DNA of 64,000 nucleotides, taken from assembly GCA_965224705.1 (NCBI GenBank), contig OZ245056.1:2880001-2944000 (forward strand), given 5' to 3'. A program made the position numbers and the translations under genes. Below are positions 8,007 through 40,280 of this stretch, piece after piece. The DNA is from Spirochaetaceae bacterium (GTDB lineage Bacteria > Spirochaetota > Spirochaetia > DSM-2461). The notes under the pieces are model-generated. The model had not been told where the DNA came from. It ran no database searches and was given only the letters and a program-made list of their open reading frames with translations. Position 1 is the first letter of the stretch; every line of letters starts with the position of its first letter.

Positions 8007-8065
8007 ATTGGAGATGTCCCGAATTCTGCTAAGAGATTGTGGTGGACGATTTTTGGGGCAGCACG
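8007..8065 (+). repeat. About 60-bp rve-element terminus, copy 1
   Basis: attggagatgtcccgaattctgctaagagattgtggtggacgatttttggggcagcacg. Confidence 0.85.
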
Positions 8066-8872
8066 AGACTTCCTTCCCACCGGAGATTGGAAAATATTCC
8101 TTAAGAGTCACTGGAATTCACTCTTCTGCTGTGATTTTCTGACGGTTGAGACATCAGGATTTCGACGCTTCTATGTGTTTTTATCATGGAGCTTAAGAGC
8201 CGAAAGATTGTACAGTTCGGGGTTACAAGGAATCCGGATTTTCAGTTTGTGGGTAATCAGCTTCGGGGATTCATGTTTGATCGGTAAGGTAAAAAGACGT
8301 ACCTGATTCATGATAATTCGGGAGAACTGAAGTGGTACGATTATGAATCACTGGGAATCAAAGGAATAGCAACTGTTCCCTTTTCTCCAAATATGAATTC
8401 TTTTGCAAAGCGATTTGTGGGCTCATTGCGCCGGGAATGTTTAGATCATTTCATCATCTTTGGCTACCGCCAACTCCATACGCTTGTCCGCGAGTATATC
8501 CGTTATTACAATGAAGAACGGCCGCATCAGGGTGTAGGAAACCGCTTGATTGAACCACAAAACCCGGTGAATCAAACAGGAAAAGTGAAGAGCCGTCCGG
8601 CTCTTTTTGGACTTGAGCGTTCCTATTACCGGGATGTGGCCTGAATTCTAAAGACAGCTAAACATTTATCTCATTTTCCAAGCCTGGCATAGGTGTATCC
8701 GTTTGGATTGACCGTTTGCTGGATTTCGGACTTCTCGGGGAAATCGGTCATGAAATCGGCGGGGATTTCTGTTGTTGGCTGGAAATTAGGAGCAGGGAAT
8801 GATGAATTTCCATTGGAGATGTCACGAATTCTGCTGAGAGATTGTGGTGGACGATTTTTTTGGTAGTATACG
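8066..8872 (+). mobile_element. Remnant of rve/DDE integrase-core transposase element ending in terminus copy 2 (8812-8872)
   Basis: Frameshifted WK.FLKSHW...CCDFLTVE...LIHDN...NSFAKRFVGSLRRECLDH...YYNEERPHQG. Confidence 0.8.
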
Positions 8873-8880
8873 GGATCAAC

Positions 8881-9945
8881 TCATCCCCCGGCATCTATTT
8901 CTCTCGCAACAACCCCAACTCCAGCATAAAAATAGTTAACCCGGTCATATTCAATCTTACCGATAGTCTTTCCTGCTGAATCAACATAACCCTTCTTTCC
9001 ATTAAGCTCCACAGTGAAAACACCATCACTGTAAGTAATAATGGAATCATATACCGGTGGTATAATGATCCGATTTTCTATCAAATCATAGACACCCATT
9101 TTTTCCAGAGATCGAAAAGATGCATAACGGTTGTGGTATATAGTCATCAAACCATCAATGGTAGTTTTCCTTTGGCCGAATTTATCAACCATAATATTTT
9201 TTTCCGTTGTGGTATCAATTATAAACCAGGAATCAGAATAAGCCCATACAGCGGTATATATAGGGTCTACAAAGACTTCACCTTCCCAACTCATAAAACC
9301 ATACCCTACACTGCTGTCTGCATTAAAAATAAGAGTGTCTCCCGCCATGAGTATTTTGCTAAAACAAATATCTTCATTCAAATCCCATTCATTATCCTTT
9401 AATTCAATAATGCATCGTTTTTTTCTACCTTTTACTAAAGCTATTCCCTTTCCAGGAATACTAATGGATAGTTTAATTGAACTAAAAGCCAGTGGACTCG
9501 CATAATTCCCATGTAAATCAATAATTCGATAATCAAATTTGGGCCGTGGCGGTATCCTTTTCCCTGTTCCAACAATCGCATATCCATAAGTGAAGCCTCC
9601 TACATCATCAAACCTAGGTTCAATGACAACTTCACCTTTTCGATTTAGAAAACCATATTTTCTTTTTTGAAAATCATAATAACCGATTCTGTCTTGTTCT
9701 AATGCAGCAAATGATGAAAGCCCACCTCTGGCGCGGTGGATTTCATCAAAACTGCTGTTAAGAAAAGCAAATTCTTTTCCATATTCTATGGCAATAATTC
9801 CTTCACTAAGTCTTGACACATACTCAGCTTTAGGAATCGAATGCAACACAATACCATTCCGATCAATAATTTCCCAGTCATAGGTCTCAGCATAAAGTGT
9901 GCACCTCAATAGCAATATCAATACTGGCTGAATCCATTTCTTCAT
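8881..9945 (-). CDS. Module C putative immunity protein, exported WG-repeat protein
   Basis: Signal peptide; repeats KYGFLNRKGEVVIEPRFD, YGFMSWEGEVFVDPIY, KKGYVDSAGK. Confidence 0.8.
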   Translation of the reverse strand: MKKWIQPVLILLLRCTLYAETYDWEIIDRNGIVLHSIPKAEYVSRLSEGIIAIEYGKEFAFLNSSFDEIHRARGGLSSFAALEQDRIGYYDFQKRKYGFLNRKGEVVIEPRFDDVGGFTYGYAIVGTGKRIPPRPKFDYRIIDLHGNYASPLAFSSIKLSISIPGKGIALVKGRKKRCIIELKDNEWDLNEDICFSKILMAGDTLIFNADSSVGYGFMSWEGEVFVDPIYTAVWAYSDSWFIIDTTTEKNIMVDKFGQRKTTIDGLMTIYHNRYASFRSLEKMGVYDLIENRIIIPPVYDSIITYSDGVFTVELNGKKGYVDSAGKTIGKIEYDRVNYFYAGVGVVAREIDAGG

Positions 9946-9954
9946 AATTAAAAC

Positions 9955-11583
9955 TCACTTCGGCGCAAAATCGCGCCCATTATGCTTTTTCCCCCGCAAA
10001 TGCTCAGGTGCATCTTCAGGATATTCGCCGTAGGGTGCTGTTTCCTTTCCCCCTTCACCCAGCGGATTTTCTGGTCCTGGATCAACAAAATCCCACCCGC
10101 CTTCACCATCCGGCTCCAGTTTTTCATGATGTACATGAGGCCCGCTTGAATCTCCGTCCTCATTTTCGTCCGTCTCAATTCGGCCAAGATAGTCACCCTT
10201 CTTTACAGGGTCACCATGATTCAATCCGTTATTCTTTACGGAATTTTCATTCATATGCCCATCATTATGCCAATTGCCTTTTTCATCCAATGCGGAGCTG
10301 TAATAACCAAGTCCGAAATTATGATTGTTTGGATCATCCCACTGACTCCCCTTATATGTCCCATCTACTGTGGAAAATACATTGTATCCATCTGCAGGTT
10401 TCTGCCCATCCTCAGTAGCCAGCCCCCAAAGATCCACATGATTCACCGGATCATTCCCCGTATACACATACCAGTTCATCCCATCCCGAATCGGATCCAC
10501 CGTCGTAAACCGTCCCAATTCAGGCCGGTAATCTCTGTACCCGTAGTTATACAGCCCCGTAAGCGGATCAAAAGGCTTCCCAACATACCCCCTCCGGTCG
10601 GTTTCAATGCTTGCTTCTAGGGGGGAGCCAAACACATCGTAACCGTATGAATCTTCCAGCTGCCCCGAAACGGTAAAGGTTGCCTGTACTGTTCCATGAA
10701 AATCCCCGGTGTAATAACTCTGATTCCCCCCGCCGTCTATCTCAGCCAAAGCACGGCTTCCGGCGATCAGAAAACTCCGGCTCCGGTGGCCGCTGACCGC
10801 CGGCCTCACATCCGGTTCGCAGCGCCGGTAGCGGGTGGGGGCGGCGTTGTTAAGAGCATCCACCCGAAGATCATTTTCCAGCTGCATGGGGATGGTGCCG
10901 ATTTGGGTGCGCTCTTCCATGGGATTCAAGCCGAAATCCCCGCAGCGGTAGAGGGTGCGCTCCCCGGACGATGTCGTGCGGCTCTGACGGCGGCCTAAAG
11001 CATCGTAGGTGTAGGAGAGGGTGTTGGAGCCGCTTTCAAATCCGGCAAGGCCCACCGTGCCCCGGCGGCTCATCTGGACGCCGGTCATCCGATTGCGGGC
11101 GTTATAGCTGTAATCGGCCGTCGAGCGTTCCACCCGTTCCTGAATCAGATTGCCGTTTCCATCGTAGTCAAAATGCCTTTGGCCGCCGCTAAAATGCACC
11201 CTTCGCGTTCCAGGCGGGGCTATCTTTTTCCAAACCGCCAGCACTTCGGCATCACCGCTGTTTTTCAGGGTGCGGAACTGATTCAAAGCCCCCTCGCCCG
11301 GTGAAAAATAGTAGGCGCTCCTTAAATCGGGGTCAAAAAGTTCAGGATAGACTTTTGATTTATTGCTGACCAGCTTCATGATATCGGCTTTCAGTGTAAC
11401 TTCACCGGGGTCGAAGTTCAACAGGTATTGGATAAAAGAATCCCCTCCGGGGGAACGCTGCTGCGGGAAAAGCCCTGCATCCAGACGATCTCTATTTTCT
11501 TCCTTACTAACGCTTAAAAGTTCACCCCTTTGCCCGTAGGTGTAGACCTCGCTGATTATCCCGTCCCGCAGAACATGGGACTT
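9955..11583 (-). pseudogene. Module C: Rhs core fragment plus M23-like toxin tip (in frame, no native start)
   Basis: YNYGYRDYRPELGRFTTVDP...NDPVNHVDLWGL, then GDPVKKGDYLG, GPHVHHE, HNGRDFA; two in-frame core deletions. Confidence 0.85.
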
Positions 11584-11642
11584 ATTGGAGATGGCCCGAA
11601 TTCTGCCGAGAGATTTTGGTGAATGATTTTTGAGGTAGCACG
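11584..11642 (+). repeat. rve-element terminus, copy 3
   Basis: attggagatggcccgaattctgccgagagattttggtgaatgatttttgaggtagcacg. Confidence 0.85.
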
Positions 11643-11897
11643 GGGGTTCGAGAAGAATTTTGGGAGTGCTCAAAATCTTAGCATAGCGATAGAAGTTTCT
11701 CCCGAGACGGTTCGCCGAACGATTCAGTGGGGATGAAAGCTGGAAAACATTTTTCCCACTGGAGATTGGAAAAGATTCCTAAAGAGTCACTGGAATTTAC
11801 TCTTTTGCTGTGATTTTTTGACGGTTGAGACATCAGGATTTCGACGCTTCTATGTGTTTTTTATCATGGAACTTAAAAGCTAAAAGATCGTGCAGTT
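11643..11897 (+). mobile_element. Second internal fragment of the rve element
   Basis: GSRRILGVLKIL...VSPETVRR...WKRFLKSHWNLLFCCDFLTVE; highly similar to 8075-8220. Confidence 0.8.
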
Positions 11898-12410
11898 CGC
11901 TTAGTGTCAAGCAAGTTGTCACGATCATCCTGCTTTTTTATATAAAAACTTTCTGGTTTCCCGTGAAGGATTCAGGTAGACAACCATACGCTCCCTCCAC
12001 ATCCGGGGACCCCTTTTCGGAAAACGTTCAGGGTGCTTCTTCCATGCCTCCTGAAGTGTCCGGTTCCTTCTGGCGAATAGGTTGGATGATGCACCTGTTC
12101 GACGCTGTAGTGGTGTGACATAACCGATTCCCGAATGCCTATGAATTGTGTTATACCAGTTGACGAAATCTGCCGTCCAACTCCTGGCCTCATCAATAGC
12201 GGCAAAGCGCCGTGGATAACCAGCATGGTATTTCAAAGTCCTGAAGAATGACTCTATGAATGGATTATCATTCTTCACCAGGGGCCGGGAGTGCGAAAGG
12301 AACATACCCATGTTGGCCAGAGTAACAGCAAAGGTTGCTCCCCGCATGGGATTTCCATTGTCCGCATGAAGCCAGGTTCCCTTGAGATCTCGTTTCGCTT
12401 TAATTCTAAG

Positions 12411-14379
12411 CCGAAGTTTTTGGCGAAGAAGTTAGTAATTCTCTATCAAAAAAAGATTTACAAATAAATTCTGTGTTGTTTACTGCTTACACCTCCCTAT
12501 TCGCATGGGATTGTACTGTACGTTTAGCAACTCAAATACCTTTGTATGAAAAGGATTTAACTCACTTCCCTGCGAGTAGCAGGGGGCGTTATCCACGGCA
12601 GGTCGAATGTCGATGATGGCTACAGCCGAAAGAGAATCAATAAGGGATCGAAAGCTCATCACGGGATATCCTTCTTCGTTAACTTTATGTTCTGCTTTGT
12701 GATTGCCATGAGGTGAACGCAAAGCCTTCCTCACCGGTGAGCTTTGCCTGCTTCTGTCTTGATACTCATCCATAAACAGCAGAGGTTTGAGTTTTTCCCT
12801 CATAGCAAACTCTACGTAATAGGCAAGCAAGCACAGATAAAAGTGCCCTTTAACCCGACTTGCAAGACGATGATGAATGGGACGGGCCTGTAGTCCGGCT
12901 ATTTTCAAGCAGCGAAACACTTCCTCCACTCGTTGAAGATTTTTGTAGTTCTCCACACATTCTGGTGTTTGCATTCTATCGCTTTCCACATTGGTACGCA
13001 GGATATAAATACCGTCACAGGCCTCTTCCTGTCCGATGGATTCTTCGTTTCGAGAAAACAAAAAGTCATCGTCCCTGATCTCTACATTGAAATGCTTGCC
13101 CATTTTATACTTTCCAATAATTCGGCCATAGCGTTCGGCAATCTTCACTTTGCCCCGTAAAGCTCTTTTTTCCCTTCTTGCGGCTTTCTGGATGGCACTT
13201 AACTTATCTTCAGCTGCACTCAACAGTTCCCGCCGTTTCTTCCTGCGTTCCTGAGCAAGATAAGGATTGCGGCACACGATAAGCCGTTCTCCGGGAAAGT
13301 CTTCGCTGTGTATTTCCCATAAATCCGTTTCATCAAAGAGTTCCGGGGTAATACTCTGGGTAGTAACCAGTTTCTTGACCGCTGGAGCACTCAAGGCTCC
13401 AAGCCATCTTACCCAATCCCCATTGTCAAGCATCTCTTCTTTAATGTTTTTGGCTGTAACCATTCCCCGATCACCGACAAACACTATTGCTTTGCCCAGC
13501 TTCCTTAACTTTTCAAGCTGCTCTGCTGCGGTAGTGCTGTCACTTCTATTGCCCTTAAATACTTGAGCTCCAACCGGAACGCCGTATCGATTTGTCATGA
13601 CACCTAACTCTATTTGCCGTTTACCCCTTTTCCCGTCCCGGCTATATCCGTATTCGGCAAGTGAACAGTGAGAACCTTCATACCAAAAGGAACTCAAGTC
13701 GTACAGCAAGATCGTATCATCCTTGAGATGACGGTTTCTTAATCGCTGTTCAATACTTCCCCACTGCTCTTCCAGATTATCAAGTGCTCCGTAAAGATCA
13801 GCAGGCTTGACTTCTCCCAGACCAAGAATGCGGTTCAAAGAGCTATGTGTATTCTTTTCATCAAGAGCATAAGCGGTCGCAAGCTTTGATGCAGGGTGAA
13901 TAATCCTCTGGGCGATCATTGCCTTAATCAGCATCAGGTTATCAGGAGACACACCTTTAAGAAGACTCTCTATGTTGAGTTGTTTCATGGTTTGAATGAT
14001 GGCCAGAGAGTGTCCGTGGGCGTAGGATCGTTCAATCGTGAACATTTTATCCGGAGAGATAATTCTTGCTCCCTTAAGCAGAGCATGAAATCCTTCTCTA
14101 ATTTCTGCCGGCCAATCAGTGAGATTGGCTATTGTTGTAGTCGTGGGTTTTCCATTGACGCGGGTTGATTTTCGAAGGAGCCAGCAGCCTGGAGAGTTTC
14201 TATTTTTGATATACTGGATATACATGTGCTGTATTATAGCATGTATTATTTATATGTCAAGCTATTAGCAATAGAAAAATTCATATTACATGCGTACATT
14301 TTCCTGTTTTTTTAGCGGTATATTCTTGTAACTTTTTTCAGAAAAAGAAATTAACTGGATTTTGCGCCAAAAACTTCGG
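12411..14379 (-). mobile_element. IS1634-family element, apparently intact
   Basis: 15-bp IRs CCGAAGTTTTTGGCG; 6-bp target duplication TCTAAG; removal restores IS3 orfB (ELFLR|IKAKRDLKG). Confidence 0.9.
12480..14225 (-). CDS. IS1634-family transposase
   Basis: 581 aa; LYDLSS, YGYSRDGK, FVGDRGM, YKNLQRVEEVFRCLK. Confidence 0.9.
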   Translation of the reverse strand: MYIQYIKNRNSPGCWLLRKSTRVNGKPTTTTIANLTDWPAEIREGFHALLKGARIISPDKMFTIERSYAHGHSLAIIQTMKQLNIESLLKGVSPDNLMLIKAMIAQRIIHPASKLATAYALDEKNTHSSLNRILGLGEVKPADLYGALDNLEEQWGSIEQRLRNRHLKDDTILLYDLSSFWYEGSHCSLAEYGYSRDGKRGKRQIELGVMTNRYGVPVGAQVFKGNRSDSTTAAEQLEKLRKLGKAIVFVGDRGMVTAKNIKEEMLDNGDWVRWLGALSAPAVKKLVTTQSITPELFDETDLWEIHSEDFPGERLIVCRNPYLAQERRKKRRELLSAAEDKLSAIQKAARREKRALRGKVKIAERYGRIIGKYKMGKHFNVEIRDDDFLFSRNEESIGQEEACDGIYILRTNVESDRMQTPECVENYKNLQRVEEVFRCLKIAGLQARPIHHRLASRVKGHFYLCLLAYYVEFAMREKLKPLLFMDEYQDRSRQSSPVRKALRSPHGNHKAEHKVNEEGYPVMSFRSLIDSLSAVAIIDIRPAVDNAPCYSQGSELNPFHTKVFELLNVQYNPMRIGRCKQ

Positions 14380-15323
14380 TCTAAGGAATAACTCTCTGGC
14401 ATATTTTTCCGACTCAGAATCATGGATGGTCCAGCCAACAATCTCACGGCTCCAAACGTCAATGACAGCATAGGCATACCAGAATAGACCATTCACCTGA
14501 GAGGGCATCCATGTAATATCCCAGGAATACACTTGATCCGGGCCGGTCGCTTTAAGTTCCGGCGGTCTGTAGGACTTTCTCGGCGGCTTTGAGCTTCGCC
14601 TGTGAGAAAGGAGTCCCCGCTGCTTCAACACTCGATAGAATGTTCTGGGACTTGCAAGGTAAGTGTCTTCTTCAGCAAGGATTGCAACAATTTCATAAGG
14701 ATTGGTATCCACAAACCTCTTAGAGCAGCATACAGCAACGATCGCATCCTTTTCCTGTTCGCTTAAGGCTCTGGGATTCGCCCTTGCCTTACCTGAGCGT
14801 TTATCATCGGAGCATTGAGTCCACCGGTAGTACGTTCTTGTTTGAATCCCCAGAGCATCACAGCATTTGTAGATTGGAGCCCCTAAAGCCACAGCCTCCT
14901 TGATATCAGAAACAATCTGTTTCTTCACACTACGATGAGTCACTCGTCCTCGGCCTCCTGAAACAGAAGAGATGTTTTTTTTTGAAGTGCTATGATTGTC
15001 GACATCTCTGCAAGAGCCTTGTCCTTACGGTTAAGCTCTTTATCCCTCTTTTTCAGCTCCTTGCGAATCTCCCTCATCTCCCGGGACTTATCCCCACCTT
15101 TCTGATCAACAAGAGCCCGGAGTTCTTGTTCCCATAGCCCAATTAGTCGTGTACACATACCAGTTCCGCCCATCCGAATTCCTCTGAGAGATCAGCTGCC
15201 TTCCGCTTCTCCGGGCCGATCATCTTTTGCAAGATAGTATTCCTGAATTGAACACTGTACCTCTGCATGTTGTCAGCTCCTACGTTGACTTAACTTGTGT
15301 GACAACTACTTTGGCACAGCGCG

Positions 15324-15334
15324 GGGGTAGCACG
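15324..15334 (+). repeat. Terminal fragment of rve-element end, copy 4
   Basis: ggggtagcacg, 34 bp past the stop codon of 15369-15734. Confidence 0.55.
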
Positions 15335-15368
15335 GCACGGGAAACAGCTAAAATTTCAGAAAAATAAG

Positions 15369-15734
15369 TTACCTTTCCGAATACTCAATTGTTATGTTTT
15401 TATAATTATTTTGCTTAACATAGATATGATTTGATGGACAATCGTGAGAAATTATTAAATGATCAGCATCACGCCAAGTTACACTTACATTTGTGCTATG
15501 ACTTCCAATAAAAACATTTCCTGTCACATTATTTTTTAATTTTTTTGTTGTCTTCATTATTGATACCTGAGGTGAGAATGAAGTTGTTGCCCCACAGTTT
15601 CGCAAAAAAGCGACTGCCTTTAAGTCACCAGAAGGGGACTCCTTTTCACTGATGATTTCATTTTCACACATTGCCGTACATCCTGATAAAATGAGTATGC
15701 TACAAATCCCAGTAATTATGATTATTCTTTTCAT
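15369..15734 (-). CDS. Module D putative immunity lipoprotein (DUF5412-like)
   Basis: Lipobox ILSGC; SPSGDLKAVAFLRNCGATTSFS. Confidence 0.75.
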   Translation of the reverse strand: MKRIIIITGICSILILSGCTAMCENEIISEKESPSGDLKAVAFLRNCGATTSFSPQVSIMKTTKKLKNNVTGNVFIGSHSTNVSVTWRDADHLIISHDCPSNHIYVKQNNYKNITIEYSER

Positions 15735-15782: not shown

Positions 15783-16065
15783 CTAATAATCAATACCTGC
15801 TTTTATTTGAACTTGGTCAGCGGGGGCATCACCATATGGAGCAGAGCCCCAAGGGTTTCCCCACTCAGGCTTTGAAGTTCCTGCCTCTGTTTGAGCCCAG
15901 ACAGCATCTCGTAATAATACTTGTTCAGGAATACTTATTGAAGCCCCAGTAGCACCAAAGTTAAAATTACCGAAATCTTGATACTCTGAGCCTTGTTGCT
16001 TATAATCCCATTCTCCTTTGTTTTTTTACAGCATTGTACTACTCTTTGTACCCCATATCTTTTGC
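15783..16065 (-). pseudogene. Module D toxin tip, Ntox44-like, inactivated
   Basis: Manual translation: E*YNAVK/NKGEWDYKQQGSEYQDFGNFNFGATG...LLR..VWAQ...PYGDAPADQVQIKAGIDY; nonsense at 16039 and frameshift in A7 run. Confidence 0.75.
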
Positions 16066-19000
16066 CTTCCGTAGATCGCTTTCCAGCTGCATGGGGATGC
16101 TGCCGATTTGGGTGCGCTCTTCCATGGGATTCAAGCCGAAATCCCCGTAGCGGTAGAGGGTGCGCTCTCCGGCCGATGTCGTGCGGCTCTGGCGGCGGCC
16201 TAAAGCATCGTAGGTGTAGGAGAGGGTGTTGGAGCCGCTTTCAAATTCGGCAAGGCCCACCGTGCCCCGGCGGCGCATCTGGACACCTTTCATCCGATTG
16301 CGGGCGTTATAGCTGTAATCGGCCGTCGAGCGTTCCACCCGTTCCTGAATCAGGTTGCCGTTTCCATCGTAGTCAAAATGCCTTTGGCCCCTCTGGATCA
16401 GCTGATTCTCCTGCCCGTAGCGGCTTTCAATCATCCCCCAGCCGTTCTGGATGCTCGCGCGGTTTCCGGCGCTGTCGTATTGATAATACTCGCTCCACTG
16501 GCAGCCGCTAAAATGCACCCTTTGCGTTCCAGGCGGGGCGATCTCTTTCCAAACCGCCAGAACTTCGGCATCACCGCTGTTTTTCAGGGTGCGGAACTGA
16601 TTCAAAGCCCCCTCTCCCGGTGAAAAATAGTAGGCGCTGCTTAAATCGGGGTCAAAAAGTTCTGGATAGACTTTTGATTTATCGCTGACCAATTTCATAA
16701 TATCGGCTTTCAGTGTAACTTCGCCGGGGTCGGAGTTCAACAGGTATTGGATAAAAGAATCCCCTCCGGGGGAACGCTGCTGCGGGAAAAGCCCTGCGTC
16801 CAGACGATCTCTGTAGCTTTTTAAGAGAATCTCATCCGAAAAGGGGTAGCTGACACGGGCCAGACGGTCCATATCGTCGTACTCGAATTCCCGCACCTTG
16901 CCTGTATGCCTCACAATGCGGCTTCTTTGACCCCCGGAGTTGTACACATAACCCTCGCCCCAAAGAAAATCATAGCGCATAGAGCCGGTTTCCCTGTAAG
17001 CTGATACCCCGACCGGACGGCCCCAATCATCGTAAATGCGCCGCTGTTCCACTCCCCCGGGGAACTGGCGGAGGATTTCCCGGCCCATCACATCGTATTC
17101 AAAGCGGATATCCTGATTCTCTTCGTCACTAACGCTTAGAAGTTCGCCCCTTTGCCCGTAGGTGTAAACCTCGCGGATGATACCGTCCCGCAGAACATGG
17201 GTCTTGTTACCCCGCTCATCGTAGCGGAAACCGATATCAGAGCTGAACCGATCATCGGTTTCCCGGATCAGCCGGTTTAATTCATCGTATTCGTAAAAAA
17301 GCCGATTTCCCTCTTCGCCTGCGGCTTCCAGAAGATTGCCAACCGCATCGTAGCGGTAGGAGACTTCAGTGCCCCTTTCATAACGCTCCTGGATTATCCT
17401 GTTGTAATCATCGTAGCTGTAATGGGTCGAGTGCCCGTTAAAGTCAATGATTTCCGATAAAAGGCTCCCCTGATAGCGAAGCGTGCGGGTGTGTCCGTTC
17501 TGGCTGGTCTGTGATATCAAACGCCCCAGTTCATCGTAGCGGGCATAGCGGCGATGGCCCAAAGGATCGGTGTCGCTGAGAAGATCCCCCGCCGCCGAGC
17601 GCCCGTAGCGGTAGAAAATCCCCTTGCCGGGACTGTAGCTGGTCAAATAGCCTAAATCATCGTATTCAAAACTCTCAATCCGGCCGGTCGGCAGAATCTT
17701 CTCAACCATGTGACCGGATTGGTCATACCGGTAAACCTCGTAAAACCCTCCGGGAAGTGCCCCCCGGATCATCCGGCCCTGTCCGTCGTATTCGTAGCGG
17801 TATTCCCCGCCTCCTGAATCACTCACCTCAACAAGTTGATCCGCCGCATCGTAGCGGTAGGTGTAGAGTGCCCCCTCATCCCCATAGGGATCGCCACTCT
17901 GGACAAGGCGGCCCAATTCATCGTACCTCCGGCTCCACTCTCCCCCCGCTTCATCAGTAATCAAGACAAGACGATCCATATCATCATAGCTGTATAACAC
18001 TTCGCCGCCGCCAGGATCAGTCTTTTTGACAGGACGGTCATACCCGTCGTATTCCAGCTGAGTCACCCGCCCAAGAGCATCTTCTATTTCGCTTAAAAGA
18101 CCGCTCCGGCTATCGTAGCGGCGGCGCTCGATAACGGTGCTATCCGGACCTATCACCTGAATCAGCCGATCCAGATTGTCATAGATAAACCGATAGGTCA
18201 GTCCATCCTCTCCGGTTCTGGCACTCAGACGGCCCAGACGGTCGTAGCTCTGATTCTCGGATATCATCCCCCGGCCGGTTTCGGCGACCCGGCCCATCGC
18301 ATCGTAGCGGTAGAGGGTATCAAGATCCCATAAATCGCTGAAAGATCTCAGCCTCCCATACTCCCAGCTGTAATGCTGCTCGGCAAGGCTCCCCTGATAA
18401 AAGGCTCCATCAAAGCGGCCGTTTTGATAGCGTCCATAACTTTCCCGGATCAGCTGCGAATGGCTGTCATAGGCGTAGCTGACAGCCCGCCCTTCCCCGT
18501 CATGGAGTAAATCAAGACGGCCCCCGGGCCCGTAGAGGTAGCTCTCCGAAGCGGAAAGCTGATCGTTTTTGTAGGAGATTTTCCCAGCAAGATAGCCTCC
18601 CTCACTGTAGCTGTATTCTTCCCGGTACACATCGGGATTCTCTTTTCCGCCGACAAAGCGGCTCATAGGCTTCTCATCTTCCCGGTAAACCCGGTACTCA
18701 ACCCGCAGATAGCGGCTCTTAAGATCATCAAAATCAAGGGATGCGTAATCGATATTCGCATCAGGAAACCCGCTTTGATCAGCAAGTCCGTCTATCCGGT
18801 AGATCAGCTTGTGACGCCTGTCGTAGATCAAACGGCTCCATACCCCGTCAAAACTGCGCACCCAGATCAAATCCTTGCGGTTATTGTATTCATAAAGCTC
18901 TCCCCGGCTCTGCTGCCCATCGGTGCTGTGTAAAGTCCGCTCTGTCAAACGCCCCTCACCATCATAGGCGAAGCTCATCTGCCGCCCTTCGACGCTTTCC

Positions 19001-19986: not shown

Positions 19987-20026
19987 TTTGCCGGGGCTTT
20001 GGTGATGGCCGTTCAGGTACTGATGA

Positions 20027-20760: not shown

Positions 20761-20891
20761 GATGGACTTCCTTTAGAACATACCCAGTATCATCCAATTT
20801 ACCTTTATCATATAATCCTTGTGTATTTTCAAAATGAGGCTTATCGTCAAATGAAGCGTCCACCCGTACTCCAGAACCTGACGCAGCAAAA

Positions 20892-22349: not shown

Positions 22350-22409
22350 AGCATTACCGCCTTACAGTTATCTGAACACTGACTTTGATCTTCGGATCGC
22401 CGGGACTAA

Positions 22410-26009: not shown

Positions 26010-26043
26010 TAATCTTCACACCCCGAGTAGTATTCTACATTAG

Positions 26044-27726: not shown

Positions 27727-27753
27727 ATAGGGGTTAACGGCGGCTTTTAAGGT

Positions 27754-29657: not shown

Positions 29658-29724
29658 TTCAAGGCTCCTTTTTCTGTATGGAGGTGATTTTATTCGATTT
29701 TTTCGGGGGGACACAAGAAAAAAG

Positions 29725-31719: not shown

Positions 31720-31730
31720 ATTAGGTGTTT

Positions 31731-32102
31731 TTATTCACCATGAATATAGCCAATTATTCTTCCATCTGATTTTGATATCTTAATATGTGGTACTCCACCA
31801 CCCCAATAGCCACTTTCTATAGTATGTGGGAATGTCCCTTTGATATACCAGACAGTTCCATTATCTGTCAACGCTGCAATAAATGGCCTTTTCTTCAGAA
31901 CTTCCTCTCCATAGACATTGACCAGTATTGCCTCTGCTATTTTGATTGCGACTTCTTCATTTGGGACGAAACCTTCTTTTTTCCATATAACTAGTCTAGC
32001 ACCGATATCAGGATCTTCTTCTTCATTTTTTTTAAAATCTTGTGATGAAGCCATTGAAACAATCAGAAATAAATAAATTGAAAACGACCATATTTTTTTC
32101 AT
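31731..32102 (-). CDS. Module G orphan immunity protein, NTF2-fold (YbbC/YhhH-like)
   Basis: VPNEEVAIKIAEAILVNVYG...RPF...WYIKGT...GGVPHIKISKSDGRII...HG; signal peptide; RBS GAGG. Confidence 0.8.
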   Translation of the reverse strand: MKKIWSFSIYLFLIVSMASSQDFKKNEEEDPDIGARLVIWKKEGFVPNEEVAIKIAEAILVNVYGEEVLKKRPFIAALTDNGTVWYIKGTFPHTIESGYWGGGVPHIKISKSDGRIIGYIHGE

Positions 32103-32124
32103 GTTTACCTCAATCAATTATTTT

Positions 32125-32376
32125 CCTTATATAGGTTTTCAGTGTAACTTCGCCGGGGTCGGAGTTCAAGAGGTATTGGATAAAAGAATCCCCTCCCGGG
32201 GAACGATGCTGCGGGAAAAGCCCTGCGTCCAGACGATCTCTGCAGCTTTTTAAGAGAATCTCATCCGAAAAGGGGTAGCTGACACGGGCCAGGCGGTTTA
32301 TAGAAAATCATAGCGCATGGAACCGGTTTCCCTGTAAGCCGATACCCCGACCGGACGGCCCCAATCATCGTAGATG
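32125..32376 (-). pseudogene. Multiply deleted Rhs core scraps fused to the module G immunity gene
   Basis: Matches core segments YDDWGRP, RVSYPFSDEI, DSFIQYLLNSDPGEVTLK. Confidence 0.75.
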
Positions 32377-32448: not shown

Positions 32449-33402
32449 TTAATGATATTCCATTATGCAGAGCAGCAGCCAATTGTCATCCGAGCGAGTT
32501 AAAAAGCTGTAGTGCGTTTCATCCACTTTTTGTGGGAAAAATAATTCTCTGGGGAAAGATTCAAGAGCTACAACCTTTTGTGTTCCGGCTTCAAGATCGA
32601 GCTCCACTACTTCGTATTCATTCTTTTGCCCACTCAGGTTTAGAAACCGTTGTCCGTCAATGTGAATGAAAGATCTAAGTCCAATTCCTTCTGATGCAAA
32701 TTCTACATTCGGGAATGCCTGCCCGGTTCGAGTTTCTGTATCAAAGATATAATATTGGTACTCACCTTCATTTCGGGTGCGGCAAAGTACCTGTAGTGGA
32801 TTTCCATACATGGCGTAAATCTGCATCGCTTCACCGAGTAAATCAATCCGCTCAATAAACTCCCGGATTTCCATATTGAAAACGAGAATATCCTTATCAT
32901 AAAATGGATGTATATATACAAACTTTTTTTCCGGGTTGTATGTATACCGATAAACGATTCCCCGCAACTCTGGGACTTCCTCCCATGCGTCGTCATCAAG
33001 ATGCAACAAGTAGTATAAGGGAACAGTGGTGTTTTCTTCTGGTCGGTGTTCACTTACAACGACATGAAGAACATTGGTGGTATGGTCATGATATAAGTTC
33101 CTGATATTCCTAATCCGTCTTTCATCCCATTCCGCCGGAGAGGAAATAGAGCGGGTTTCCTGTGTCCTCAGATTGTATACAGTAAAATTGATTCCCGGTT
33201 CCCGCATTGGCAGGATGATAGTGTCCTCTCCCATAAAAGCATATTCAACAGATGCCCCCGTTTGGGCTATCGGGAAGGCTATAATATTGTGCTCTTCCCG
33301 CAATTCTTTCCGAAGTTCTGCTTCCGACTGCCCTCCGGCAAACAGGAATGATGAGGCCATACTGGATAGGAATAGACTGAGACTAATTATTCTTGGATTC
33401 AT
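32449..33402 (-). CDS. Module H putative exported immunity protein
   Basis: Start MNPRIISL overlaps toxin end; signal peptide ending FLFAGGQSE; beta-rich. Confidence 0.7.
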   Translation of the reverse strand: MNPRIISLSLFLSSMASSFLFAGGQSEAELRKELREEHNIIAFPIAQTGASVEYAFMGEDTIILPMREPGINFTVYNLRTQETRSISSPAEWDERRIRNIRNLYHDHTTNVLHVVVSEHRPEENTTVPLYYLLHLDDDAWEEVPELRGIVYRYTYNPEKKFVYIHPFYDKDILVFNMEIREFIERIDLLGEAMQIYAMYGNPLQVLCRTRNEGEYQYYIFDTETRTGQAFPNVEFASEGIGLRSFIHIDGQRFLNLSGQKNEYEVVELDLEAGTQKVVALESFPRELFFPQKVDETHYSFLTRSDDNWLLLCIMEYH

Positions 33403-34265
33403 CAGTCTTTCCACTACCATCACCAATACCAAGGCCACTACCATCGCCACCACCACTTCCAATGCCCAATAGGGAGGAAAGAAAGGTAGTGATTTTCTCC
33501 GGTCCCACAGAGGGTGTACCTGAAGTATTGGTTCCTGTTGTTATGGATTTAGGTATCTTTTTGTTAAGAGCTTCATTGGTCTGATTCCACCATATCTCCT
33601 TACCTGGCGGGTTATATGATCTGACATCGGCTACACCGGTTTCTGATTTCCATCGGCGGCCTAAAGCATCGTAGGTGTAGGAGGGGGCGTTGGAGCCGCT
33701 TTCAAATCCGGCAAGGCCCACCGTGCCCCGGCGGCTCATCTGGACGCCTCTCATCTGGCTCCTCTGGATCAGCTGATTCTCCCGGACGCAGCGGCTTTCA
33801 ATCATCCCCCAGCCGTTCTGGATGCTCACGCGGTTTCCGGCCCTGTCGTACTGATAGTACTCACTCCACTGGCAGCCGCTAAAATGCACCCTTTGCGTTC
33901 CAGGCGGGGCGATCTCTTTCCAAACCGCCAGAACTTCGGCATCACCGCTGTTCTTCAGGGTGCGGAACTGATTCAAAGCCCCCTCTCCCGGTGAAAAATC
34001 GTAGGCGCTGCTTAAATCGGGGTCAAAAAGTTCAGGATAGACTTTTGATTTATCGCTGACCAGTTTCATGATATCGGCTTTCAGTGTAACTTCGCCGGGG
34101 TCGGAGGTCAAGAGGTATTAGATAAAAGAATCCTCCTCGCTGCGGGAAAAGCCGCGCTGCATTCAGGCTCTCTTTATCCTCTTCGTCACTAACGCTTAAA
34201 AGTTCACCCCTTTGCCCGTAGGTGTAGACCTTGCTGATTATCCCGTCCGCTAAAACATGGGTCTT
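33383..34265 (-). pseudogene. Module H: Rhs core scraps fused to tail of an unknown toxin tip
   Basis: YTYDALGRR joined directly to WKSETG...; DPxG region missing. Confidence 0.8.
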
Positions 34266-34324
34266 ATTGGAGATGTTCCGAATTCTACCGAGAGATTGTG
34301 GTGAACGATTCTTGAGGCAGCACG
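34266..34324 (+). repeat. rve-element terminus, copy 5
   Basis: attggagatgttccgaattctaccgagagattgtggtgaacgattcttgaggcagcacg. Confidence 0.85.
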
Positions 34325-34377: not shown

Positions 34378-34932
34378 TCACCAGCCTTTTATATTTAGGG
34401 ATTGATATTTGTCTTTTCGATAATTCAAAAAATATGAAATAGTCTTTTTTTCTTCCTTGCCGTTCTGAACAATACCCAGTTCTACTTGTAATGTAATCGG
34501 TTTTTTATTATCAACAAGAATAGACTTGTCACTAAACAAAGTTATACCTGCATATGGATACTTTATCTTCAAATCCCCCCGATAATTTTCCTTAAAGGGG
34601 ACTTTACTGTTCGGAGTGTCAGAGATTTCTCGTTTGGAACCATTTTCAAAATAAGTGAAATTATATTTATATACTTTCATGTATTCATAACCTTCACTGT
34701 TAGCGAATGCACCTAAATGACCAGAATAAGAATTAGTTTGTAAATCTCGAAAAAAGGGATGAATAATAGAACCGGAAACTATATAATTGTTATCAATAAA
34801 TTCATCAAACTTTAGCTCTTTGATAAAATCTTCTGTTTTTTCATTGTATATACTTTTATATTCACTTATACTACATCCTAACATTATCAAAATTGTTAGT
34901 GAAATTAGAACTAAATTTGATATCTTTTTCAT
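34378..34932 (-). CDS. Module I putative immunity lipoprotein
   Basis: MKKISNLVLISLTILIMLGC lipobox; very AT-rich. Confidence 0.75.
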   Translation of the reverse strand: MKKISNLVLISLTILIMLGCSISEYKSIYNEKTEDFIKELKFDEFIDNNYIVSGSIIHPFFRDLQTNSYSGHLGAFANSEGYEYMKVYKYNFTYFENGSKREISDTPNSKVPFKENYRGDLKIKYPYAGITLFSDKSILVDNKKPITLQVELGIVQNGKEEKKTISYFLNYRKDKYQSLNIKGW

Positions 34933-34946
34933 AAATAATCTCACTA

Positions 34947-35559
34947 TTATTTTCTATCAATTCCAAGTATATAACACGGGGCAACATCCATAACACCGTG
35001 ACCTACCATTGTGCCGCCAACTTTCAACCATTCCCCAGCATCGTACCACTTTTTTAGATTTGGAGCAACATTTATATAATTGTATGTACCATGATACTTG
35101 TCAGTTAAAATTTGACCAGTATCTCCATCATAAACAACCTCACGTCCGTCTAAATCATTAACCCATTTTTCATCTCTTGTTTCACCATTTTGATGAAAAG
35201 CACCCTTATACTCATGTCGCCATTCAGGCTGATTACCAATTTCATCTTTTGAAGAAAGATTTATATTATTTGCATCTCGGTTCTCAAAATTAAACTTTGT
35301 TAAGCCTGTGACAAGAGCATCCACTTTGCTTTTCACTTTATCCCAAAGACCAGGTTCGGAATTCGCAGGGGTTCCACCACCCAAAGTCCCCCCCGAGGCA
35401 CCATATAATTCCTCACTGCCGTCTGACGCGGCCCCATCCTCAGCCGCCAGCCCCCCGCAGGGATCCACATAATTCACCGGATCATTCCCCGTGTACACAT
35501 ACCAGTTCTGCCCATCCCGAATTAGGATCCACCGCAGTAAACCGCCCCAATTCAGGCCG
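34947..35559 (-). pseudogene. Module I: end of Rhs core plus toxin tip (GTYNY...H...DVAP type)
   Basis: RPELGRFTAVDP...NDPVNYVDPCGGL; tip FHQNG...KWV...GREVVYD...GTYNY...HGVMDVAP. Confidence 0.8.
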
Positions 35560-35862: not shown

Positions 35863-36261
35863 TCACCGCTCTGGCCAGAGCGTGTTAATAACATATTTAC
35901 AATTTTCTTTTAAATTAGGGAATTCAGTAATAAAAGTTGTTAAATCAATTTTTATTGTCTCATAATCATCTATTTTTTCTGAATAAATATCCTCTCGATA
36001 AAAATGGGTAAAATAGTACATAACATTATTTCCAGCTGATAAACTTTTCATATCATCTATAAAAACTGAAACTTGGTTATTATTACTTTTTCCCAAAATA
36101 TCAGTTGAGCAACCATTATAGATACAAAAATAAATAAATAACTTTTTCGCACTAAGAAATACACTTTGTGAAATTTTTGAACTATTCGCATCTTTGTAGC
36201 ACAAGTGAAGCGTGCTGATATTCATCTGTGTTGGAATACCAATTGTTATAAAATAACTCAT
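35863..36261 (-). CDS. Module J second putative immunity protein
   Basis: 132 aa AT-rich ORF abutting 36262. Confidence 0.55.
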   Translation of the reverse strand: MSYFITIGIPTQMNISTLHLCYKDANSSKISQSVFLSAKKLFIYFCIYNGCSTDILGKSNNNQVSVFIDDMKSLSAGNNVMYYFTHFYREDIYSEKIDDYETIKIDLTTFITEFPNLKENCKYVINTLWPER

Positions 36262-36489
36262 CTAAAAATATGATTTCCCATAAACTTTTGTAATAGCTTC
36301 GTTGCCCTGATTTACACCATACTCTTTAACTGAAATTTCCTCAATTCCAAGTATATTTAATCGTTCTTCTTTTGCTTTATCGAATGCCAAATTTATGACA
36401 TTTTGTTCATTCTCCGCTAATACTTCAATTGTAACTAAATACCTTCTATCTAAATCTTCACCTTCAAGCATTACATTAAAACGGTTCAT
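36262..36489 (-). CDS. Module J putative cytoplasmic immunity protein
   Basis: 75 aa acidic ORF 17 bp after toxin stop, AGGA RBS. Confidence 0.65.
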   Translation of the reverse strand: MNRFNVMLEGEDLDRRYLVTIEVLAENEQNVINLAFDKAKEERLNILGIEEISVKEYGVNQGNEAITKVYGKSYF

Positions 36490-36506
36490 TTAATTTGTCC
36501 TATCCT

Positions 36507-38340
36507 TTACCAAAAAGAGTGACCACCCTTTCTATTCTTTCCATAATAATGCGGCGAGTAACCTTCTCCATGCGGCAAGTTTCTAACGGCACCGCCTGAT
36601 GCCTCTCTTTGTAATTTTTTAGCCATCTTTTTAGACGAAGACACTACATCGCCACCATTTTTTAGTCTCTTAACAGCGTTTGTTTTTGATATCTGCTTTC
36701 CGACATCTAATCCACCTTCAACTCTATTTGCCACTCTAACAGCATCACTAACTTTATCAGCTGCTTTTACTCCATTTTTTACCCACTTCCCACCAGTAGC
36801 AAACTGACCAGCGATAGGTATCATAGCAGCAGCACTTAATCCTGCATCTACCCAATTACCACGTCCAAGCGAGATTAACGTATTAATTGCGTCAGGAATA
36901 ATACCAACAGCAGGAATTAAACCTGCTCCATCTAAGCCTGCCTGTAACCCATCGAGCCACGTAAATCCAGATTTATCCGAACCTCCCCCCGATGTACCAT
37001 ATAATTCCTCACTGCCGTCTGGCGCAGCCCCATCCTCAGCACTCAACCCCCAAAGATCAACATAATTGACCGGATCATTCCCCGTATACACATACCAATT
37101 CATCCCATCCCGAATCGGATCCACCGTCGTAAACCGTCCCAATTCAGGCCGGTAATCTCTGTAACCGTAGTTATACAGCCCCGTAAGCGGATCAAAAGGC
37201 TTCCCAACATACCCCCTCCGGTCGGTTTCAATGCTTGCTTCTAAAGGGGAGCCAAACACATCGTAATCGTATGAATCTTCCAGCTGACCCGAAACGGTAA
37301 AGGCCGTCTGGACCGTCCCATGGAAATCACCAGTGTAATAACTCTGATTCCCCCCGCCGTCTATCTCTGCCAAAGCACGGCTTCCGGCGATCAGAAAACT
37401 CCGGCTCCGGTGGCCGCTGACCGCCGGCCTCACATCCGGTTCGTAGCGACGGTAGCGGGTGGGGGCGGCGTTGTTAAGAGCATCCACCCGAAGATCATTT
37501 TCCAGCTGCATGGGGATGCTGCCGATTTGGGTGCGCTCTTCCATGGGATTCAAGCCGAAATCCCCGTAGCGGTAGAGGGTACGCTCTCCGGCCGATGTCG
37601 TGCGGCTCTGGCGGCGGCCTAAAGCATCGTAGGTGTAGGAGAGGGCGTTGGAGCCGCTTTCAAATCCGGCAAGGCCCACCGTGCCCCGGCGGCTCATCTG
37701 GACGCCGGTCATCCGATTGCGGGCGTTATAGCTGTAATCAGCCGTCGAGCGTTCCACCCGTTCCTGAATCAGATTGCCGTTTCCATCGTAGTCAAAATGC
37801 ATTTGGCCCCTCTGGATCAGCTGATTCTCCCGGACGCAGCGGCTTTCAATCATCCCCCAGCCGTTCTGGATGCTCACGCGGTTTCCGGCCCTGTCGTACT
37901 GATAGTACTCACTCCACTGGCAGCCGCTAAAATGCACCCTTTGCGTTCCAGGCGGGGCTATCTCTTTCCAAACCGCCAGAACTTCGGCATCACCGCTGTT
38001 TTTCAGGGTGCGGAACTGATTCAAAGCCCCCTCATCCGGTGAAAAATAGTAGGCGATGCTTAAAGCGGGGTCGAAAAGTTCAGGATAGACTTTTGATTTA
38101 TCGCTGACCAGCTTCATAATATCGGCTTTCAGTGTAACTTCGCCGGGGTCGGAGTTCAAGAGGTATTGGATAAAAGAATCCCCTCCGGGGGAACGCTGCT
38201 GCGGGAAAAGCCCTGCGTCCAGACGATCTCTGTAGCTTTTTAAGAGAATCTCATCCAAAAAGGGGTAGCTGACACGGGCCAGACGGTCCATATCGTCGTA
38301 CTCGAATTCCCGCACCTTGCCGTAGCAAAACATGGGTCTT
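36507..38340 (-). pseudogene. Module J: Rhs core fragment + PT-TG pre-toxin + basic His-containing tip
   Basis: NYVDLWGL; LDGAGLIPAVGIIPDAIN...RGNWVDAGLSAAAMIP..G; tip PHGEGYSPHYY...GHSFW. Confidence 0.85.
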
Positions 38341-38399
38341 ATTGGAGATGTCCCGAATTTTGCCGAGAGATTGTGGTGAACGATTTTTGAGGCAGCACG
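38341..38399 (+). repeat. rve-element terminus, copy 6
   Basis: attggagatgtcccgaattttgccgagagattgtggtgaacgatttttgaggcagcacg. Confidence 0.85.
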
Positions 38400-38447: not shown

Positions 38448-39218
38448 CTACCATCCACTCAAAAGAAGATAGCTAATACTGGTATCCTGCCACACCGTGC
38501 CAGGGTACACTTCCAGAATCTCCAATTTCACCGGGTAATCCGGGTTGATGGCTATGGGAAACGGGTGGGGAGAATTCGGTATCCCGACATCACTGGATTC
38601 CCCGTTCTGCCATACCCGGATCTTCTTTATACGGGAATTCTTCCTGTAGAGGGACGGATTTGAATAGGAGATGAACCCGTTCATAAAATGAATGCGTATA
38701 GATCCTGGTGCTGTTGTCTTAGGGAATTCAATCCATTCCCCAATGCCCGGCCCGGGTACTCCCTCCACCCACGGGTTCAGATCCAAATCTTCCAAATTGG
38801 ATGCCTTGTAGGCAACTGCAACTTCCGACAGAAAGGACGATGCATGAACAACTTCATAAGGAGTACTAAGAAACTCCAACTTCATGATTCCTGCGGATAT
38901 AGCCCTGTAGCAGAGTTCACCATCGGAATCGAACCAATACATGATGTCGTCGTTGAACAGAACAAGCTTGCGGTTTTCTACATCTCCATCAATGGTGAGA
39001 AAAGGAACTCCATGTTCATAATCCAATCGATACTCGCGACGGACGGCTACATCTTTATGTGAGGGAACTCTATCCCATGTGGTATACAGTAAATAATTAT
39101 CAAAAAATTCGTATTCCGACTCCCATTCACGATACACACGGCCATCCAGGCTTTGAGCGAAGACTGAGGCATTTAACAGAAACGACAGAATTACTAATGC
39201 AAAATTTCTTATTATTAT
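38448..39218 (-). CDS. Module K putative exported immunity protein with discoidin-like (NADase-type glycan-binding) domain; start codon reads ATA
   Basis: AAGGAG then ATA ATA ATA AGA (IIIRNFALVILSFLLNASVFAQ); ASSFL...PWVEGVPGPGIGEWI...NG...NSRIKKI. Confidence 0.65.
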   Translation of the reverse strand: MIIRNFALVILSFLLNASVFAQSLDGRVYREWESEYEFFDNYLLYTTWDRVPSHKDVAVRREYRLDYEHGVPFLTIDGDVENRKLVLFNDDIMYWFDSDGELCYRAISAGIMKLEFLSTPYEVVHASSFLSEVAVAYKASNLEDLDLNPWVEGVPGPGIGEWIEFPKTTAPGSIRIHFMNGFISYSNPSLYRKNSRIKKIRVWQNGESSDVGIPNSPHPFPIAINPDYPVKLEILEVYPGTVWQDTSISYLLLSGW

Positions 39219-39430
39219 TGATTCTCCTTCCCCGAAGCGATCGTTACCGGAATACTATCTCCAGGCTTGAACCCCAAGCCGTTCAGTTCATTTTTTCCTT
39301 TATCAAAGTACTCATCGGGAATTACCTGGCATTCGGCAACGATAGAGCCCAATAACGTAAATCGACCGGCACGGTGAATCAGATAGGCATCCATAGGGCC
39401 AACTGGTGTCTTTGGATTAATTAAGTGAAT
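39215..39430 (-). pseudogene. Module K toxin tail, cut by IS
   Basis: Manual translation IHLINPKTPVGPMDAYLIHRAGRFTLLGSIVAECQVIP...GFKPGDSIPVTIASGKENQ*. Confidence 0.5.
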
Positions 39431-40236
39431 GGCATCGGGAAATCTCTGTCCTTAAGAAGGGAGAGGAGCAGTCCAAAGAGCTTACTGAGATAGAGAAACA
39501 GGTGGACCGGAGCAGCAAAGAATCTCTTGCGGCACTTAATAAGGAGGCGGCCTGGGGTGGAAAGAAGAACTCATCGGGAAATACTTACTATTGGAAGGGA
39601 GGTAAGCTGCATCTTGATGTTACCGACAGCGGACTGCCGGTAACCGTACTCTATACAGGGGCGGATGTTCACGATTCGCAGCTTGCGATTCCGATGGAGC
39701 AGATCACCTTTTCAAAAATAAAGTACTGTTACACGGTGATGGATTCAGCCTATAACTCTTGCGTAATAGAAGAAATTATCAAGAGTCAGGGACACGTGCC
39801 GATCATAGACCAAAAAAACCCAAAGGATGGGTAAAGATTCCTCTTGATCCTGCGAAGAAGGAACGTTACAAAATACGTTCCTCGGCGGAGCGGGCCAACT
39901 CCCATCTGAAGGATTCGTTTTTTCCCAAGCAGCTTTGCGTCAGAGGGAATGAGAAGGTGTTTTTTCAGTTAATGTGTGGAGTTCTTTGTCTTACCGCACA
40001 AAAGATACTTCAATATTTCATTCTTCCAGCTCTGAACAAAGAAGCGGCATAGAAGGAATGGGCCGAGATTCCTGTTTTTGGGGAGAAGTATGCCCGAAAC
40101 ATAGAAAAATGGCTTTTTTCATGTAAAAGGCCTGGCAAAAGCTTCATTTTCAATGAGAATTTGGTCGCAGTAGCATCAGAAGTAGCAACACTCCTCCGCT
40201 GACTGATATTTTCATGGAGAGTTTTTGAATTAGCTC
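39431..40236 (+). mobile_element. 3' remnant of the IS5/IS1182-like element
   Basis: AWGGKKNS...KLHLDVTD...VHDSQLAIP...MDSAY...RSSAERANSHLK; same right IR as 31702-31719. Confidence 0.75.
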
Positions 40237-40263
40237 AGAAGCTATGGATTTAGGGGTTAGCTA

Positions 40264-40280
40264 ATTTTTGGGGTAGCACG
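40264..40280 (+). repeat. Terminal fragment of rve-element end, copy 7
   Basis: atttttggggtagcacg, 2 bp past the stop codon of 40283-40639. Confidence 0.7.

Follow-up and report, generated by a model that had tools for sequence, protein, structure and literature searches.

Ends of an rve_3 transposon recur downstream of putative immunity genes at bacterial Rhs loci

The Rhs locus in a 64,000-bp stretch of a Spirochaetaceae genome (assembly GCA_965224705.1, contig OZ245056.1, positions 2,880,001 to 2,944,000; hereafter the window, with positions counted from its first letter) carries repeated copies of one short terminus. We found this repeat to be the right end (R) of a DDE transposon with a single open reading frame (ORF) of the rve_3 type. 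At Rhs loci, the element lies antisense and downstream of a putative immunity gene, and this architecture recurs in three phyla. Throughout the family, the ends lie at A-N-N^(G/C)G sites, with neither a target duplication nor a partner end joined at the same site. From this pattern in the sequences, we propose that joins made by the transposase may take part in mobilising or capturing toxin-immunity modules, a proposal for and against which we see the case as evenly balanced.

Terminus copies at the window Rhs locus

The terminus is present in five full copies of 59 nucleotides, starting at 8007, 8812, 11584, 34266 and 38341, and in two fragments at 15324-15334 and about 40264-40280. All seven are on the plus strand, just where a first-pass annotation of the stretch had placed them. 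The full copies are pairwise identical at 47-55 of the 59 positions, and those at 8812 and 34266 deviate from the motif first quoted for the terminus. No inverted copy of the 59-mer was found in the window, as had been noted; relatives of the element do have inverted left ends, so the absence here reflects loss or decay. A BLASTN search of the five copies against the whole 3,005,944-bp genome gave no match better than E ~0.1 outside the Rhs locus; the terminus is thus not abundant genome-wide. All seven Rhs-core matches of the genome also fall inside the window.

The outer edges of five ends lie just past the stop codons of genes on the opposite strand. The gaps, which agree with those first annotated, are 8, 34, 53, 48 and 2 bp for the genes at 8881, 15369, 34378, 38448 and 40283, respectively, the 8-bp gap assuming that copy 8812 ends at 8872. 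The two remaining copies, ending at 8065 and 11642, are joined to the interior of the transposase (rve) gene at two different points, again in agreement with the earlier description. All seven outer edges are exact and avoid coding DNA, and none of the seven rests in a silent orphan core or tip. If joins fell at random on permissive sites in 4700-42100, at least five of seven near a stop would be expected with P ~7e-8.

The inner edges show a different kind of regularity. Copies 11584, 34266 and 38341 share one junction on the Rhs core, at 17205-17208 of the main gene, and these junction copies are about 10% diverged from each other. A further core deletion, internal to the fragment, is common to the cassettes at 11584 and 34266, and we take the inner junction to descend from one duplicated ancestor rather than from a repeated event. 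The earlier observation of a common Rhs codon in three cassettes therefore stands, and the suggestion that it was made repeatedly does not.

From left to right, the locus starts with an orphan Rhs core fragment in two ORFs (6216-7964, minus strand; RHS_repeat and TIGR03696 matches, 97% identical to the main core at 16501-17687), with a tip and a small gene downstream (5543-6099). Copy 1 (8007-8065, plus; homology back to about 7998) abuts the broken 3' part of the rve_3 transposase gene (8066-8644, plus), which has a frameshift near 8175, a stop at 8285-8287 and a residue other than Glu at the third catalytic position. The 3' untranslated tail of the element (8645-8872, plus) includes copy 2 (8812-8872), rightly recognised before as the natural 3' end of the remnant, for relatives end likewise, 180-250 bp past the stop, and close with ...CACTACG. 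It is faced by a WG-repeat gene (8881-9945, minus) and an orphan core fragment with a tip weakly matching M23 peptidases (9955-11583, minus), which begins at the shared inner junction. Copy 3 (11584-11642, plus) joins core position 17205 on its inner side and, on its outer side, a second internal rve piece (11643-11899, plus; 91% identical to 8074-8219) that is interrupted by an unrelated insertion sequence (IS). The last 11 bp of the right end (15324-15334, plus) face a DUF5412 gene (15369-15734, minus), behind which lie an Ntox44 toxin tip (15786-16025, minus; Pfam E 4e-9) and the main Rhs/YD-repeat gene (16039-22349, minus), which lacks its last core segment.

Further right, an orphan core fragment with a short tip and a 337-amino-acid (aa) downstream gene (32449-34265, minus) begins at the shared inner junction and is bounded by copy 4 (34266-34324, plus). 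This copy faces a putative immunity gene (34378-34944) and its tip (34947-35498; together 34378-35498, minus), neither matching Pfam. The next orphan core plus tip (36507-38333), with two small downstream genes (35863-38340, minus; TIGR03696), again begins at the shared junction, followed by copy 5 (38341-38399, plus) and a gene with an NADase-type glycan-binding domain (38448-39137, minus). Finally, the last 17 bp of the right end (40264-40280, plus) face a membrane-type putative immunity gene (40283-40669) with a tip (40641-41282) and a short core piece (together 40283-41438, minus).

With a main rhs gene, core fragments with variable tips and pieces on both sides of the main gene, the locus qualifies as an Rhs orphan array. 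It is decayed: the main gene is split into three ORFs, the Ntox44 tip is out of frame with it, and several ordinary multicopy ISs are strewn through the region. The five end-facing genes had been called unrelated immunity genes. Immunity is used here as a positional label: none of the five matches an Imm family (one WG repeat, one DUF5412, one NADase-type glycan-binding domain, two without match), and gene 38448, an orphan in this respect, has no tip immediately upstream. Small genes do succeed tips in the locus, with Imm-NTF2-2 matches at 31731 and 41467, neither among the five. The NADase-type glycan-binding domain also faces an end in a Breznakiella locus (L015).

The transposase family, its joins and its Rhs loci

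Relatives of the element were found in Treponema, Breznakiella, Holophagae, Planctomycetes and others, with ends 20-250 bp past the transposase stop and a T-rich motif closing AC(G/A). Their transposase is a single rve_3 ORF of 343-370 aa in which the D, D and E positions are kept. Many carry an inverted left tip, which was not found or is degenerate in Holophagae and several spirochaete copies, and the 48 two-ended relatives have terminal inverted repeats, mostly CGT...ACG. Six long members scored 60-107 bits against the IS481 model NF033577 (NCBIfam cut-off 224) and 64-93 bits against the IS3 model NF033516 (cut-off 160). IS3 elements have overlapping orfA and orfB genes; neither this layout nor a 3-5 bp duplication was seen in the family, which has a single ORF and no duplication. 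The transposase clusters bear generic names only, and a search of solved structures gave no match.

In the window genome, the transposase is dead and the element a fossil: neither an intact transposase nor a second match to the transposase fragment was found in the 3.0 Mb, and the intact element with both ends for which the first-pass annotation had advised a search is likewise absent from this genome. Close copies of the window terminus gave 0 matches in metagenome collections and 0 in genome collections, and none of 13 same-genus genomes matched the window DNA. Intact transposase genes are present in two named strains, Acanthopleuribacter pedis KCTC 12899 and Breznakiella homolactica RmG30; A. 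pedis has three, plus one with a stop, at ratios of nonsynonymous to synonymous substitution of 0.19-0.30. Five A. pedis loci (L291, L294, L285, L293 and L288) have no clear inverted left end and share a GC-rich hairpin about 100 bp upstream of the transposase start; the start of this hairpin is the point at which L293 and L288 carry a fused Rhs piece.

The relationships were outlined with a quick tree of 74 rows and hand-made labels, from which six duplicate loci and all but three Marinacidobacterales loci were omitted. In this tree, the family-level relatives group with Spirochaetota records. The toxin-linked state changes 10 times and appears in at least three separate clades, and a 14-row clade of mostly two-ended elements with short tails has no toxin-linked member.

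How the family joins DNA is recorded in its flanks. Not one of the 48 two-ended elements has a target duplication of 4-30 bp (IS481-type elements make 2-15 bp, mostly 6), and among 61 scored for shorter ones 49 have none and 12 have 1-3 bp. The left flank ends in CC in 33 of the 48, and the right flank starts with GG in 29. For 19 of the 48 one flank was seen unoccupied elsewhere, and in no case did the other flank stand beside it; no empty site carrying both flanks was found for 56 elements. Beyond the tip, G occupies position +2 in 68% of 121 tips against a background of 20%. In 94 empty-site contexts, dominated by Marinacidobacterales, +2 is G in 78% and -3 is A in 56%, and C at the mirror position reaches only 21-30%; the 32 contexts without Marinacidobacterales are likewise lopsided (mirror-position C 12-28%). 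Automatic end calling left 51 transposase stops without an end, ten of which were added by hand to the duplication, empty-site and target-context analyses. The window flanks follow suit, with G or C at +2 in seven of seven (P ~6e-4), which argues that these joins were made by the transposase and not by random deletion.

We take this pattern to mean that each element end was joined independently, or was rejoined once the element had inserted. Fusion of ends to the element's own interior, 49-805 bp from the next tip, is also frequent. In one case, seen in two genomes, the left and right ends of one element type (L158:8995 and L129:7524) are joined from either side to a single point in a sister element, and 3 bp are absent between the flanks. 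The tip ending at 8065 was also found on other flanks, one starting with GG, in contigs from public runs, some labelled mollusc metagenome; as loose ends at 85% likeness, these offer only a hint.

The link to Rhs was assessed by searching the tip genome-wide and comparing its positions with those of TIGR03696 Rhs cores within 5 kb. In A. pedis, 13 of 21 clusters face an antisense Rhs core, as do 10 of 12 in a Holophagae metagenome-assembled genome (MAG) and all three in B. homolactica, 26 of 36 in total, with a chance expectation for a facing core of about 1% or less; none of the 36 faces a sense core. Among the eight A. pedis clusters without a facing core, six have a contig that runs out in less than 2.4 kb, and two show no element homology. 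Related genomes in these counts are not independent. Around the ends of relatives, with the 51 uncalled stops excluded, the Rhs core motif lies downstream and antisense at 10 loci, upstream and antisense at two, and in sense at none. In other spirochaetes, the end stands behind M23 or NlpC/P60 toxin-type modules.

The first ORF beyond a terminal end is antisense in 66 of 81 cases, at a median distance of 7 bp, and in 13 cases it finishes at the tip's own TAG; distances of -10 to -12 denote ORFs crossing the end, and inverted left ends are among those counted for Planctomycetes. Ends truncate three homologous ankyrin genes, each at a different codon. At A. pedis L291, the left side of the element adjoins a core piece that matches the core of the same locus at 95% identity, mirroring the window, and L294 has the same left junction with a different tip and downstream gene. 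The eight A. pedis tips show no similarity to one another, nor do the eight downstream genes.

Two further loci may be recorded here. At L112:15972-16176, the piece present comes from the element's 5' part and not from its right end; 24 bp separate it from the stop codon of an SH3-domain gene, which in turn succeeds a long toxin-type ORF. At L016:8478-9343, a short gene pair upstream of the element, in the same orientation, reads as toxin-immunity-like.

Capture, erosion and other explanations

The first-pass annotation had proposed that each unit is built with one junction made at the element end and the other by core homology. This remains the best model, with about an even chance of holding. 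The transposase would join one end at a time to a new site. An R that heads a core-tip-immunity module, or stands behind a resident one, would be joined just past an immunity gene, and this end-joining would either copy out a circle or capture incoming DNA; the second junction would form by homologous recombination in the Rhs core. A circle made when R is joined past its own module's immunity gene could integrate by core homology, and capture of linear DNA would give the same product in one step. The displaced tip would inherit the old R-core junction, and every new module would bring an immunity-R junction of its own. A join within the immunity gene would be lethal once the new tip is active, and the tip's own TAG could serve as the stop. 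Selection for a whole immunity gene would therefore leave the surviving joins at or just past its stop codon. Core homology would spread tip-immunity modules whose 3' boundary is set by one-ended joins, and the element, although dispensable, would often travel along and provide the non-homologous junction.

Core-to-core recombination as modelled in PMC2935791 would carry an immunity-end-core block unchanged and therefore could not give one inner junction several outer partners, as found in the window; each new outer junction would thus need an end-joining event. In a bolder form, the rve_3 family would be a one-ended integrase that builds cassette arrays: R would capture DNA just past a stop codon, even supplying that codon, and would have been co-opted in Holophagae and spirochaetes to anchor the 3' side of Rhs toxin-immunity exchange on a lasting basis. 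In Treponema it would string single genes without core homology. We find this wider claim doubtful.

Several observations weigh against the element as a dedicated machine for cassette acquisition. It is neither required for Rhs arrays nor specific to Rhs. Three same-genus genomes (G012, G001 and G009) have Rhs arrays with 18, 5 and 6 core motifs in the regions examined, and no rve match or end stack in them. Only 13 of 47 Rhs cores in one Holophagae genome (G054) and nine of 42 in another (G055) have an end, only three of 28 clusters in three Planctomycete genomes face an Rhs core, and in a Treponema MAG an Rhs tip is near only four of 24 ends, most of which stand behind small unknown genes. 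One right end in G015 is directed away from an Rhs gene, toward a gene whose sequence reads as tRNA-synthetase-like, and the L093 end faces a gene that reads as RNase H-like. In the window itself, five of the 12 small post-tip genes face the terminus, three face other IS ends and four face core pieces or another gene, the unrelated IS ends halting 10-43 bp from the three. No circle or capture intermediate was seen in the assembled contigs, and the sequence alone does not separate capture from deletion to the nearest needed gene.

Three sets of loci show the range of arrangements. The long Rhs array at G012:C2:136000-202000 (20 matches) has no trace of the element and is a ready control for cassette bounds without it. 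In the Treponema MAG (L329:8700-15500, L330:10100-12600 and L331:7600-12200), small unknown genes stand in strings with an antisense end fragment 0-94 bp after each, mostly without an Rhs core between units, and two strings diverge head to head in L329. In Marinacidobacterales L135 and L141, as many as nine tips point the same way within 20 kb, and three or four are inverted, amid genes that read as restriction- and toxin-antitoxin-like and not as Rhs; tip stacking is therefore not limited to Rhs loci.

The strongest rival, which we rate as a real if lesser possibility, is that cassettes arrive by ordinary core-to-core recombination through circles of the type proposed by Jackson and that R makes one-ended adjacent deletions outward until the first selected gene, often an immunity gene, is reached. 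R would then mark a boundary without helping acquisition. Such deletions would explain well the ends that stop at housekeeping-type genes. Ends that nibble into last codons, the stacking of ends on their own interior at 49-805 bp and the existence of R-free arrays also speak for them, and it is known that target duplications can be missing as a result of adjacent deletions (PMC11708052). Ends eroding outward should, however, often come to rest in silent orphan cores or tips, where no window end lies. One inner junction with three tips would also take duplication followed by deletion, more steps to the same end state, and the placement of 19 of 21 A. pedis clusters with element homology at Rhs-like loci, none in sense, would be left unexplained.

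Targeted insertion appears unlikely. Here, the element would prefer gene 3' ends, convergently, or recombination breaks at Rhs loci and would later decay from its left side. The convergence of 66 of 81 terminal ends, non-Rhs genes included, speaks for it, as does a proposal that IS481 and IS5 elements enter rearrangement breaks without duplication (PMC11708052). Ready-made breaks would, however, not yield the ^(G/C)G signature, independent events cannot produce the same core junction three times, and the left and right flanks derive from different sites.

Still less probable, to the point of being very unlikely, is a neutral accumulation of IS debris in which one ancestral junction was duplicated and then trimmed by random deletion and selection, the outcome that the first-pass annotation had named as fatal to its own reading. 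The duplication half holds, as the inner junction has a single ancestor with copies about 10% diverged, and IS debris and broken Rhs pieces abound in the locus. The random-deletion half fails on the flank signature, which largely refutes it: the seven outer edges are exact, carry the family's target signature and avoid coding DNA, and no fewer than three separate clades of the quick transposase tree show this layout.

A reading of the repeat as a recombination site of attC-like or RNA-guided type, served by a different enzyme, is hardly credible: the Treponema gene-plus-repeat arrays do look integron-like, and yet the 59-mers form no hairpin (z -0.3 to +1.2), 13 tails share no consensus structure, Rfam gave no match, the 62 window proteins scanned include no tyrosine recombinase, and the repeat is the inverted-repeat tip of a DDE element. 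We therefore rejected this reading.

Neighbouring features, known systems and meaning

Other features of the window are these. The IS that interrupts the second rve piece is a multicopy IS3/IS481-like element (11897-15323, minus) in which a DDE_Tnp_1 element is nested (12480-14225), and it does not belong to the system. In an arrangement resembling a composite transposon (22407-27729), a core-tip piece and a 166-aa gene are enclosed by two DDE_Tnp_1_4 elements of 98% identity, the first directly upstream of the main Rhs start. A caspase plus FGE-sulfatase gene lies within the Rhs region (27837-29780), and related copies of it are present in other parts of the genome. A block of 470 bp that includes an Imm-NTF2-2 gene occurs twice at 96% identity (31721-32190 and 41456-41928), and a 150-aa gene (42368-42820) has six 21-bp tandem repeats encoding a heptad coiled coil.

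The tests made place the window system outside the integrons and outside the IS481, IS3, IS91 and H-repeat groups. Its array resembles an integron and lacks attC, as first described; no IntI tyrosine recombinase was found among the 62 window proteins scanned, the rest of the genome not having been searched for IntI. H-repeat/ISEc1 belongs to the ISAs1 family. The transposase gave no ISAs1 match, only matches below cut-off to IS481, IS3, IS630 and IS21 models. The H-repeat of Escherichia coli Rhs elements is likewise a specific IS tied to Rhs tips, with a transposase of a different family, and its transposition was not observed (PMC3032704). Like IS481 and IS3 elements (Kojima and Bao, 2023; PMC10045372), the family has an rve-type DDE domain and two-ended members with (T/C)GT...AC(A/G) inverted tips; unlike them, it falls below both NCBIfam cut-offs, makes no target duplication, has flanks from unrelated sites and leaves many solo right ends.

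One-ended mobilisation is known from IS91/ISCR, whose transposases are HUH rolling-circle enzymes, and from ISEcp1. The present protein is a rve_3 DDE protein and not an HUH (Y2) transposase. One fixed end with a variable other boundary is shared with these elements and with telomeric TnsB transposons, although the latter still move with two ends and make 5-bp duplications (10.1101/2024.11.13.623437). Xer-associated poly-immunity loci (Zhang, 2012; PMC3482391; Xenorhabdus and Photorhabdus cases cited in 10.64898/2026.07.13.738213) also place a recombinase or IS beside immunity arrays, there with a tyrosine recombinase or unspecified IS sites.

Rhs C-terminal displacement and orphan arrays have been attributed to core-homology exchange via proposed circles (Jackson, 2009; PMC2935791; Poole, 2011; PMC3150448). 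The window shares with them core fragments with variable tips and downstream putative immunity genes behind a main gene, and differs from those described in these papers in having at its 3' junction a transposon end that bears a target signature. ISs near Rhs and contact-dependent inhibition orphans are known as disrupters or neighbours (PMC3150448; 10.1101/2025.05.08.652813; PMC3032704). For type VI secretion effector-immunity and Rhs arrays, homology-facilitated illegitimate recombination was proposed (Kirchberger, 2017; PMC5361080), in an account that names no enzyme and states that there is no evidence for integrase-aided insertion. It, too, has one homologous anchor and one non-homologous junction, and in the window a DDE end stands at the latter. 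In the open-access literature, supplements excluded, we found no account of a fixed IS-end boundary, in line with the first-pass annotation, nor of the behaviour of the rve_3 family, nor of one-ended H-repeat joins or end stacks that define an immunity boundary.

The recurrence of the end behind the antitoxin gene suggests that a transposase makes the non-matching junction in toxin-antitoxin module swaps. How polymorphic toxin loci gain a tip-immunity module with one-sided homology is an open question, for which circles or illegitimate recombination by an unnamed enzyme have been proposed (PMC2935791; PMC5361080). The rve_3 element offers a concrete candidate: its cis site is short, its joins carry a target signature, and two named strains have intact genes, so that the question of the junction enzyme becomes directly testable. 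A DDE family that makes no target duplication and has its ends at unrelated sites would represent an unusual mode of transposition and a possible tool for one-arm DNA capture. A one-ended cassette integrase, if true, would be a DDE analogue of the integron and would fill the place of the enzyme still missing for the illegitimate junction of polymorphic toxin arrays.

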